This document shows, piece after piece, positions 6,377 to 62,235 of a stretch of DNA of 64,000 bases. Every line of letters starts with the position of its first letter. Within the stretch, counting starts at the first letter, position 1. This stretch comes from Octopus vulgaris (Eukaryota). The position numbers were made by a program, and so were the translations under genes. The notes below the pieces were generated by a model. That model saw only the letters and a list, made by a program, of their open reading frames with translations, was not told where the DNA came from and did no database searches. The stretch covers positions 33,666,001 through 33,730,000 of the forward strand of contig OX597818.1 of assembly GCA_951406725.2 (NCBI GenBank), in the 5' to 3' direction.

Positions 6377-6699
6377 TCACCGACTCCTTCAACTGCACCT
6401 ACAACAATATCATCTATTGCATCTCCTGATACCTCTGCCATTCTCTGTACGTCGGACAAACAGTACGCCGTTTGGCTGACCGGTTCGAGGAACACCTCCG
6501 AGATATCAGCCTCGGCAATGACACCCCGGTCTCACGCCATTTCCGCTCTACCGGTCACTCTTTGCAACACCTGTCTGTGTTCGGATTGTCCTTGCACAGA
6601 GGCCATCCGGACTCCCATTTGCGTCGTGAACAGGGATTGATCTTCTCTCTTCGCTCCTTTACGCCATTTGGGCTTAACTGTCCTCTCCTCTTCATCTAA
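6376..6699 (+). pseudogene. Penelope-like element GIY-YIG endonuclease fragment
   Basis: ITDSFNCTYNNIIYCIS*YLCHSLYVGQTVRRLADRFEEHLRDI...PVSRHF...GHS...REQGLIFSLRSFTPFGLN, with one in-frame TGA at 6427. It starts at a (TA)n tract and is followed by a pyrimidine-rich 3' region to ~7500. Confidence 0.9.
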
Positions 6700-7688
6700 C
6701 CTCCTTCCCTTGCCTCTCTCCCCCGCCCTCCTACTTCCTCCCACCCAACTCTCCTCTCTTGCCCCGTCTCCTACTTCTCTTCACTCCTACATCTCTTCAC
6801 CTCTACTCGCTTTCCCTCTTCTCTCTTACTCTCTTTCTCTCTTCTCTCTTTCCCTCTTCTCTCTCACTCTGCTTCTCTATTTCTCTCTTCTCTCCTACTC
6901 TCTTTATCTCTTTCTCTCCCGTCTTTCTCTCTTCTCTCTTACTCTCTTTCTCTCTTCCCTCTTTCTCTCTTCTGTATTATTCTCTTTCTCGCTTCTCTCT
7001 TACTCTCTTTCTCTCTTCTCTCCCCCCTCCCTCCTCACATACCCACCTCCCCATACCCCCATAAGCCCACCCACCCTCACACATTCATACTCCATCTTCC
7101 CTATCCTTCCAATCCTCCGATCCCATCCCCCATCCTATACCACACACCCTCTGCCTACCCACAAACCCCAACTCTACCCCAAACCTCAGCCGAAGCCACA
7201 CCCCACCCGTGCTTTCCCCAATCTCGCCTCCCCCACCACCCAACATCACACCACACCATACTACACCATACAACATTACACATCACGTCACAACCACCAC
7301 TCACACACCAATCCCCACATTTTCACACCTACACATACATACACGCACACGTCCATACCATCAGCCCTCTTTCACACGCACATAGTTACTCTCTTATACA
7401 CACACGCACCTTCGTGTTGGGGGTCATCTTTACTCTGTTATCTCCCCTACTTCTTGCCCCCTCTCGTGTGTGACCCTTCTGTCCGAAATCAGTCGCCATG
7501 ATAGATCGTTAGCCACTACACACATTTTTTCTCTCCTTGTTTATTCGTGTCCTTTTCATTAGAAGAGCGTAGGCTCGAAACGTAAAAGCTCATACAAAGC
7601 TTTACATTTTACTTTTGACAATCTTTTTCTATAAAAGTGAAAACGGTCACGTGAATAAATATCTTTAAAATTGCATTTTGAAACCTTC

Positions 7689-7733
<45 letters not shown>

Positions 7734-36394: not shown

Positions 36395-36489
<95 letters not shown>

Positions 36490-36652
36490 GTTATCGCCAT
36501 ACTAATATGGCATTCTTATAAAAATAAGAAAAAAGCTGTCCGCTTATTAGCTCCATGAGGCCATCGCCTTAAGTTAGCTATTTGATACACAAACTGTATC
36601 CATATAACCTTCGAACAAGGGAGGTCAGTCGCTCCACACTACTTGACCGGCA

Positions 36653-36694
36653 GCTACAGATGCGTTTCGGAGTATTGCCCCTTTTCAATGCAGC
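36653..36694 (-). ncRNA. Type I hammerhead ribozyme, unit 1 (stem III palindrome mutated, AUC triplet)
   Basis: Minus strand reads GCUGCA UUGAAAA GGGG-CAAUA-CUCC GAAA CGCAUC UGUAGC. Confidence 0.7.
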
Positions 36695-37014
36695 GTAGCC
36701 AGCCAGTAGGTGTCGCTTCCGACAATCTCTGTTCGATGCTTTTATTTACCTAGTTTCGGTGGAATACATCCACTTGTTTTCAATAATAGAAATATTAAAA
36801 TAACTAAGTCTCTCTAAAAGAGAACAACGGCAGCGTTCCCGGAAAATAATAGTTATCGCCATACTAATATGGCATTCTTATAAAAATAAGAAAAAAGCTG
36901 TCCGCTTATTAGCTCCATGAGGCCATCGCCTTAAGTTAGCTATTTGATACACAAACTGTATCCATATAACCTTCGAACAAGGGAGGTCAGTCGCTCCACA
37001 CTACTTGACCGGCA

Positions 37015-37056
37015 GCTACAGACGCGTTTCGGAGTATTGCCCCTTTTCAATGCAGC
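37015..37056 (-). ncRNA. Minimal type I hammerhead ribozyme, U3-A8 core variant, unit 2
   Basis: Minus strand reads GCUGCA|UUGAAAA|GGGG CAAUA CUCC|GAAA CGCG UC^UGUAGC. Stem I is GCUGCA/UGUAGC, extended by UGGCUGGC/GCCGGUCA and CUAC/GUAG. Stem III is the palindrome ACGCGU and the cleavage triplet is GUC. Confidence 0.85.
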
Positions 37057-37376
37057 GTAGCCAGCCAGTAGGTGTCGCTTCCGACAATCTCTGTTCGATG
37101 GTTTTATTTACCTAGTTTCGGTGCAATACATCCACTTGTTTTCAATAATAGAAATATTAAAATAACTAAGTCTCTCTAAAAGAGAACAGCGGCAGCGTTC
37201 CCGGAAAATAATAGTTATCGCCATACTAATATGGCATTCTTATAAAAATAAGAAAAAAGCTGTCCGCTTATTAGCTCCATGAGGCCATCGCCTTAAGTTA
37301 GCTATTTGATACACAAACTGTATCCATATAACCTTCGAACAAGGGAGGTCAGTCGCTCCACACTACTTGAGCGGCA

Positions 37377-37418
37377 GCTACAGACGCGTTTCGGAGTATT
37401 GCCCCTTTTCAATGCAGC
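37377..37418 (-). ncRNA. Minimal type I hammerhead ribozyme, U3-A8 core variant, unit 3
   Basis: Core identical to 37015-37056. Confidence 0.85.
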
Positions 37419-38097
37419 GTAGCCAGCCAGTAGGTGTCGCTTCCGACAATCTCTGTTCGATGGTTTTATTTACCTAGTTTCGGTGGAATACATCCACTTG
37501 TTTTCAATAATAGAAATATTAAAATAACTAAGTCTCTCTAAAAGGGGCAATACTCCGAAACGCGTCTGTAGCTGCCGGTCAAGTAGTGTGGAGCGACTGA
37601 CCTCCCTTGTTCGAAGGTTATATGGATACAGTTTGTGTATCAAATAGCTAACTTAAGGCGATGGCCTCATGGAGCTAATAAGCGGACAGCTTTTTTCTTA
37701 TTTTTATAAGAATGCCATATTAGTATGGCGATAACTATTATTTTCCGGGAACGCTGCCGCTCTTCTCTTTTAGAGAGACTTAGTTATTTTAATATTTCTA
37801 TTATATATATATATATACATCTTATATATTTGTGGTTTTCGTCACTGTTTACAATTATCTTCAAAAAGATTTTTTTAATGTATCGTATAGATGTATTATT
37901 TGACGCTGAATCCGAATTTGATATTCATTTACTCCAGAAAAGTTTTACAGAAGTGTAACAGGTGTTCAAATTTTGAAAATTTTCAGTATTTTCAGCCCAT
38001 CAGAAAACAACAGGTTCGCTGCCTCTTCCATCATTGGAGCAGGGGCATCGGCATGTCAAAACATTAAACTAGCTACAGTAAACAGTGAATAAAAAGA

Positions 38098-61170: not shown

Positions 61171-61288
61171 ATGCTTACAGCACCTAGGTTTCCCAAGCGG
61201 TCACCCATCTAAGTACTTGCTAGGCTCGGCTTTGCTTAACTTAGGCGATCGGACAAAAACGGTGCATTCAACGTGATATGGCCGTACA
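61171..61288 (-). pseudogene. 5S rRNA pseudogene (isolated, diverged)
   Basis: The minus strand tacggccatatcacgttgaatgcaccg...gtccgatc...aagttaagc...agtacttagatgggtgaccgcttgggaaacc..ggtgctgtaagc aligns with metazoan 5S over ~118 nt with multiple substitutions. There is no oligo-T terminator or tandem array. Confidence 0.88.
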
Positions 61289-62235
61289 TATAAATGCATG
61301 TATATGTATGTGTGTGTATGTGCATGCGTGTGTGTGTGGATGTTCTTGTGTGTATGAACGCGCAAGTGTATTTGTGTAACCGTTCCTGCCTAAAAAGATG
61401 TTCTTGCTGTATGTATTACTATCGTGACAACAATAAAAAAAAATTGTTACTATTTCATCCATAGCAGGAGCAACGGGTTGAGTTACTGAGCACTCTCAGG
61501 GGTTAAATATATTGCTAAGATGCTCTAAACTTGAAATGCCAAAACTGAACTATGTATTTTTACTATATAACCTCTAGAATGTAAGTCAGCGATCCGATAT
61601 ATCAAATACAGCTTATAGAGTCCTCTGAAGGTAATTTTTATTGCCCATACTAAATCAGTTATTATTTGTCGTTGATATATAAAGTAATTTCTTCTTACGT
61701 TTTATTTTTATTCCAACAATTGCTACATATATATTGGGAGGCTAAAAGTGTAACTATCTTAAATTCAACAGCGGCTGACGTGGTGATAGATCACCGAAAT
61801 TTTTAGATAGGCAATAAATTAGCAAGTAGATATCCAATATTTTGTACATTGACTTATATCTTCAGCTTAAAGAATAACTGATAAGAGAAGATGATATTTA
61901 GAAACTCTTAATTAACCCGCCATAGATATTCATATGTGTCTGTGTGTGTGTGCGTATTTGAGTGTTTCAAGTTGAAAGGATGTTAGATTCTTTATGAAAT
62001 AACATTCCCCAAAAAGAAGCAAGTACTAGAGGCGATTCGATTTCCAGTTGGTGTCATAACGTAATCACTGTAAAATGATGAACACAGGTAAAAGAAAATT
62101 AATAATAACAAAGACAATTTTAAGGAATGTGGGTAACTGGAATACTTACCTACTCGTATTTGACAGGTATAATTTTCGATCGGCCAAGAGAAATGGAAGG
62201 TAAGTTGACCTGGGCGGTATTTCTACTCAGAACGC

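Follow-up and report, generated by a model that had tools for sequence, protein, structure and literature searches.

Head-to-head insertions of an octopus hammerhead retrozyme pair two fixed ends and suggest two-sided target-primed reverse transcription

The inverted retrozyme copy studied here is part of one insertion of a non-coding hammerhead retrozyme and is typical of its family, in which every head-to-head insertion with intact ends (85/85 loci) combines one outer end at a fixed site A (monomer positions 170–180) with one outer end at a fixed site B (233–241). Monomer positions are counted throughout from the predicted ribozyme cut. Pairings of A with A or of B with B were not found among these 85 loci, and a free choice of site would give such pairings in about half of the loci. 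Because the priming points are fixed and always different from each other, the copies point to enzyme-directed insertion with a short target duplication and not to the repair of chance breaks. The reading preferred here, to which a probability of about 0.7 is assigned, is two-sided target-primed reverse transcription by the machinery of Penelope-like elements (PLEs) on one multimeric, probably circular, RNA.

The locus was found in a window of 64 kb (the whole stretch of Octopus vulgaris DNA that was analysed, 64,000 nucleotides) of a 2.8-Gb, microsatellite-rich host genome. A left target tract of the (TA)n type (36403–36483, no strand) is followed by a long arm on the reverse strand (36484–37544, 1061 bp, 2.9 units of a 362-bp retrozyme), the tandem units of which start at 36484, 36846, and 37208, are ~99% identical, and end with a third unit that breaks off at 37544. 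Expressed in monomer positions, this arm runs from its 5′ end at 201 through two more units to its 3′ end at site A (~175). An inverted arm on the forward strand (37540–37804, 265 bp) extends from monomer position 336 via the predicted cut (37566/37567) to site B (238) and is followed by the right (AT)n target tract (37805–37817, no strand). At the head-to-head junction (37540–37544, no strand), both arms have AAAAG in common, i.e., a 5-nt microhomology at monomer positions 201–205 of one arm and 336–340 of the other; an overlap of at least 5 nt occurs in 0.7% of random joins of the 362-bp monomer. The reverse complement of 37540–37804 matched the unit over 265 nt (one difference relative to unit 2), which together with this overlap bears out the claim of the first-pass annotation that an inverted partial unit is joined through AAAAG. 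The same holds for the proposed head-to-head arrangement with both 3′ ends at TA tracts, as both arms terminate in CTATTAT and each terminus adjoins one of the two tracts. The junction was crossed without differences by one 53-nt short-read contig of run X1 (flanks of 28 and 30 letters, slightly under the 31 letters required of a bridging contig; X1 is possibly the assembly's own sample). In runs X2, X3, and X14, no contig over this junction was among the matches listed, which carries no evidential weight.

Two further claims of that annotation stood in part. The inverted copy had been described as reading through the unit boundary; the read-through is real, but the boundary seen there is site A, and the extra 63 nt from site A to site B (37742–37804, forward strand), which are terminal on the inverted arm only, form a 'tail' of the PLE type. 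A multimeric or circular template is needed because the inverted arm reads through the ribozyme cut, not because it crosses site A. The break had also been placed inside the ribozyme core, and its location is correct, with the inverted arm beginning at A6 of the core and lacking the 5′ strand of stem I as well as U3-U4-G5. It has no special role, however: since only 6/152 arm 5′ ends of the family lie at monomer positions 331–350, the breakpoint inside the core is incidental, and the studied locus by itself is ordinary for its family.

Judged by sequence criteria, the element fits a metazoan non-LTR retrozyme (dispersed tandem units of ~150–450 bp, type I hammerhead, non-coding, low GC), with a GC content of 41% (retrozyme criterion: below 45–50%) and a longest internal stop-to-stop frame of 60 aa. 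No long frame, and hence no open reading frame for RT and GIY-YIG, is present within it, and the element is non-autonomous. As read from the sequence, each unit carries a type I minimal hammerhead motif on the reverse strand with a U3-A8 core, stems I–III, and a stem III formed by a 2-bp palindrome (unit 1, 36654–36693, where a G-to-A change at 36661 breaks a C-G pair of stem III; unit 2, 37016–37055, with palindromic stem III; unit 3, 37378–37417, with the predicted cut between 37383 and 37382). The U3-A8 core is a published variant of PLE hammerheads (PMC4209133); within the 64-kb window, no hammerhead match reached the Rfam gathering score. Two copies of the hammerhead co-fold via stem III. 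An older subfamily is identical to the young monomer at 298/362 positions and differs from it by a G-C to A-U exchange in stem II, a G-U to G-C exchange in stem I, and a stem III palindrome that is altered yet still palindromic, so that hammerhead pairing is kept by compensatory changes. A second, hammerhead-like motif (37474–37507, also 37112–37145 and 36750–36783, reverse strand) begins exactly at site B and comprises a U3-A8 core, a 5-bp stem II, GAAA, a short stem III, and a stem I that is one base out of register. This motif is near-invariant (122/144 copies identical) and may be a relic or an enzyme-binding element. Pieces of the family in one run guessed to be RNA were rejected as evidence of expression.

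For the family analysis, 110 merged loci were sampled, one of which had no family match, leaving 109. These loci were taken from a DNA search (38 loci, from the best-scoring 40 of 1186 genome candidates), from matches to an internal 38-mer (32 loci, drawn from the first 100 of 584 matches without the last C2 locus and the C3 rows), and from end patterns, with 29 loci picked solely by their A end and 11 by their B end (first 100 matches listed for each pattern). A 28-nt stray piece in L125 was excluded. In L100 and L104, the entire two-armed insertion is present twice, 2.4 and 1.1 kb apart, with an identical junction, i.e., as a local duplication that followed insertion, and each of these two loci was counted once. 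The family is young (copies ~99% identical) and probably comprises ~900 or more insertions, since the A-end pattern had 460 forward matches in the genome.

Head-to-head arms were found in 90/109 loci (83%) and tail-to-tail arms in 0/109, while 19/109 had no inverted partner. In five of the 90 head-to-head loci one end was truncated or interrupted; the 85 with one A end and one B end came from all sources (31 from the DNA search, 24 from the internal pattern, 22 from the A-end pick, and 8 from the B-end pick), and nine of them belong to the older subfamily. The 63-nt tail was present on one end only in 85/85 loci, TA-rich flanks occurred on both sides in 82/85, and only 5/85 had a B arm that did not extend beyond site A. 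Target duplications of 8–14 nt with a non-TA landmark were detected in 10 of 39 informative loci, whereas 300 shuffles gave 2.7 such loci on average and never more than 8, which is weak evidence; in L042, L066, and L106, a non-TA base close to one end (a few nt at most) was not duplicated, and the studied locus is uninformative in this respect.

The exact overlap at 76 young junctions was 0–1 nt in 14, 2–4 nt in 44, and 5–7 nt in 7, with inserted bases at the remaining 11 (133–263 nt in three of these). Overlaps of at least 2 nt were present at 51/76 junctions versus 16.4% of random joins, and overlaps of at least 4 nt at 25/76 versus 2.0%. The first-pass annotation had proposed that two cDNAs were primed from both ends of a break in (TA)n and joined by microhomology, and had counted a lack of inversions or TA flanks in other copies against this proposal; the inversions and TA flanks counted above, along with microhomology far above chance, support it instead. 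Arm 5′ ends are scattered across the monomer and slightly concentrated around a hairpin at 39–51. Only 4/152 of them fall 6 nt or less from the predicted cut, so the copies show no trace of cleaved linear templates; in the BLAST table, arm ends had seemed to cluster at this cut, but the cluster was gone after base-by-base extension. The three long inserts (L113, L114, and L098) consist of unrelated sequence between the arms, SINE-like by eye in two of them, and are either later insertions or the result of jumps to other RNA templates.

As the predicted ribozyme cut was crossed by an arm in 62/77 two-arm loci and arms reach up to ~10 units, the template was a multimer or a circle. In 145 comparisons at four subfamily markers, the two arms disagreed only once: they agreed in 24/25 loci at position 350 (14 variant on both arms), in 57/57 at position 128 (5 variant on both arms), in 37/37 at position 219 (3 variant on both arms), and in 26/26 at position 352 (2 variant on both arms). 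A multimeric or circular template shared by both arms and primed from two sides, as annotated at first pass, is in keeping with the variants common to both arms and with the crossing of the cut. In L083, L092, and L113, a private variant was present in every copy of both arms and in 0 of the 84, 77, and 85 other loci covering the respective site. Such variants would be expected from the repeated reading of one monomer circle, and an unsampled uniform source array would be equally adequate. The mixed units of L093, which follow the same order on both arms, are not predicted by a monomer circle. Rare variants at positions covered by both arms were unshared in 92 cases versus 14 shared (one of the latter spurious on inspection); variants on one arm only are expected as later mutations, copying errors, or sequencing errors. 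A shared variant at position 178 of L095, which had seemed to fix the register of the arms, consists of two different changes. An RNA circle that was read round and round is slightly favoured as the template, and a linear multimer would be a serious candidate at less than even odds.

The proposed mechanism starts from features seen directly in the copies (fixed ends, A+B pairing, TA flanks, microhomology excess, shared variants, and read-through of the cut). A GIY-YIG enzyme of a PLE would cut (TA)n with a stagger, leaving two AT-rich 3′ overhangs, one of which would prime at site A and the other 63 nt downstream, at site B; at either site, 2–4 nt of the overhang would pair with UAUUAU. A single multimeric RNA would be copied into both cDNAs toward the 5′ side of the RNA, and round the circle if one is present, for which the B copy would often have to displace the A copy. 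The 3′ ends of the cDNAs would anneal by microhomology, as with AAAAG at the studied locus, and each cDNA would template the second strand of the other. The PLE enzyme, the RNA circle, self-cleavage, and this order of events are what the model adds to the copies. At a chance only a little short of even, two-sided priming may be the normal integration route of endonuclease-bearing PLEs and retrozymes in general: a dimer would seat both overhangs on two fixed sites of one RNA circle, rolling-circle copying would write the array at insertion, and the cDNAs would supply each other's second strand. If this is true, a single mechanism would underlie the tandem arrays as well as the inverted repeat and the one-sided tail.

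Single priming followed by fold-back, in which the cDNA would snap back to serve as its own template and endonuclease resolution would determine the second end (ideas contained in sections of PMC3846280 and PMC8557442), is decidedly unlikely as the general route. This was addressed by a containment test on 77 loci (7 three-piece loci and L108 excluded): a self-primed copy would lie inside the other arm, yet neither arm was contained in the other in 27/77 loci (26 when allowing for deletions in L045; 26.4 with shuffled lengths), which contradicts fold-back in this role. Fold-back alone also leaves unexplained why A-primed arms were never paired with an A end. In its favour, arm starts lay within 15 nt of each other in the same unit in 10/77 loci (2.7 expected; 0/5000 shuffles reached 10), near-symmetric arm starts in different units were present in 9 loci (3.8 expected, p = 0.012), and L026 and L041 share a change placed symmetrically on both sides of the junction, a pattern expected from fold-back or conversion. 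However, hairpins would also provide two separate cDNA ends with microhomology, a possible cause of the near-symmetric excess, and the symmetric joins in L088, L137, L040, and L045 are situated on 4–6-nt palindromes with no space for a loop. L026 and L041 may be true fold-backs, and fold-back may act as a minority route, e.g., when a long cDNA folds at the hairpin at 39–51 and then anneals to a short cDNA from the other end.

Priming from both sides on two separate RNAs of one source locus, with the asymmetry stemming from two protein subunits or two cut ends, is improbable as well. An extra rule would be needed to bar A+A and B+B pairings (0/85), and variants found in a single sampled locus sit on both arms, even though shared alleles could come from one source locus, arm lengths are nearly uncorrelated (Spearman 0.12), and the usual passage of B arms beyond site A would be simpler without strand displacement. 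Least probable are inversions that arose after insertion, through recombination or replication template switching in satellite-like arrays, or that are assembly errors. Some arrays were indeed altered later (whole duplications in L100 and L104, mixed units in L039), and local amplification by unequal crossover is discussed in a section of Li et al. (10.64898/2026.07.22.740005), but each outer end is a precise site next to a TA tract, 90 head-to-head loci stand against no tail-to-tail locus, and the copies are ~99% identical. Regarding assembly errors, head-to-head joints of the family were present in short-read contigs of four runs, with sides of only 20–35 letters, and the studied junction was present in X1.

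Two-sided priming on one RNA, the preferred reading, can be set beside LINE-1 twin priming, in which both target ends prime and a head-to-head inversion with microhomology results. In LINE-1, the internal site is a chance site, the arms are not known to overlap, and a minority of insertions is concerned. In contrast, the second site is fixed in the octopus family, there is usually sequence overlap between the arms, and 83% of the sampled loci are inverted.

An inverted copy with a one-sided tail has been described for endonuclease-bearing PLEs and ascribed to self-priming or endonuclease resolution (sections of PMC8557442 and PMC3846280). The octopus family resembles this footprint in its inverted, 5′-truncated head-to-head copy (90/109) and in its tail on one end, and the likeness to inverted truncated Penelope copies noted in the first-pass annotation was thereby supported. 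It differs from the PLE layout published in those sections by a protein-free carrier, a tail of 63 nt instead of 30–40, and the exception-free one-sidedness of the tail (85/85). The containment test disfavours the self-priming or resolution account of the PLE layout. In vitro, the Poseidon PLE of the anole cuts and extends both strands, has two internal RT start sites, and is predicted to form a dimer (PMC11167929). Likenesses to Poseidon are the two internal start sites bounding the tail, AT-rich cutting, extension of both strands, and the predicted dimer; in contrast to the octopus sites, the Poseidon start sites are not homologous to the cut DNA and do not differ between strands, and the pairing of ends per event was outside the scope of that study, which left second-strand synthesis open and did not treat inversions or non-autonomous templates (PMC11167929). 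For metazoan non-LTR retrozymes, mobilisation by PLEs and templating by circular RNA have been proposed (sections of PMC7229834 and 10.64898/2026.07.22.740005). The octopus element shares with them the dispersed tandem non-coding units with one type I hammerhead per unit; unlike the retrozymes described in those sections, it has head-to-head arms, fixed ends, and microhomology joins, in addition to the U3-A8 core variant and the second hammerhead-like motif after site B.

The PLE-type inverted copy with a one-sided tail and the proposal of a link between retrozymes and PLEs were already known. Neither the strict A+B rule nor a two-sided model for PLEs or retrozymes was found in the literature searched, and subscription reviews (2005–2006) and supplements, including Fig. 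S9 of PMC7229834, may hold one. The completion of PLE integration, the inverted copy with its one-sided tail, and the movement of retrozymes are stated as open in passages of PMC8557442, PMC11167929, and Li et al. 2026. With its hundreds of near-identical, protein-free insertions, the young octopus family constitutes a per-event record of integration, and the rule of one A end and one B end on the same template can be checked against PLE integration. The findings argue that retrozyme arrays are born multimeric and are not grown by unequal crossover.

Two young PLE families were identified in the genome. The first (e.g., L164:2884–6593, reverse strand; loci L160–L174) has a 776-aa open frame with an RVT_1 match and, as read by eye, a CxxC motif before the endonuclease, a feature of Neptune/Nematis according to a section of PMC8557442, and the family is putatively of the Neptune/Nematis type. 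Upstream of this frame and overlapping it lies a 480-aa frame in a different phase that has no Pfam match, possibly due to an intron, a frameshift, or a second ORF. The second family (L186, L191, and relatives) has a 781-aa frame with GIY-YIG above the Pfam cut-off, 57% identity to the 776-aa protein over the 591 aa compared, tandem repeats in its terminal region with short and long ends, and a hammerhead-like stem III palindrome identical to that of the older retrozyme subfamily. As read by eye, hammerhead-like motifs of the U3-A8 type are present in both families. The two families insert into TA and terminate in a short or a long end ~35–45 nt apart; the 776-aa family combined a long with a short end in 6/6 loci with both ends found (15 loci fetched), and in the 781-aa family only single ends were seen per locus.

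Comparison of the young and older monomers with the terminal repeats of these two families yielded no extended match (70 PLE-related loci), and the tails of the two families share a motif that is absent from the retrozyme tail. Common to the retrozyme and the PLE families are the U3-A8 core and the end geometry, and it is by analogy from this shared footprint that PLEs are considered candidates for mobilising the retrozyme. An RT fragment in L125 and Pfam GIY-YIG matches, followed as routes to an autonomous partner, led to the young PLE families and to no sequence match. In L125:2500–3950, the 5′ end of an older retrozyme arm is fused to ~180 nt from the RT region of a PLE, preceded by inverted pieces of the end of that PLE, a possible chimeric insertion and the single, weak hint of a PLE link. 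The retrozyme in L198 was rejected as PLE-linked, since all it has in common with a PLE end is a TA tract. Elsewhere in the window, decayed PLE remnants were present at 6382–6561 and 7602–7733 (a weak match to the endonuclease region and a piece of the terminal repeat of the 776-aa family), and a 5S rRNA match at 61172–61289 (reverse strand, 75 bits) represents an isolated gene or pseudogene.
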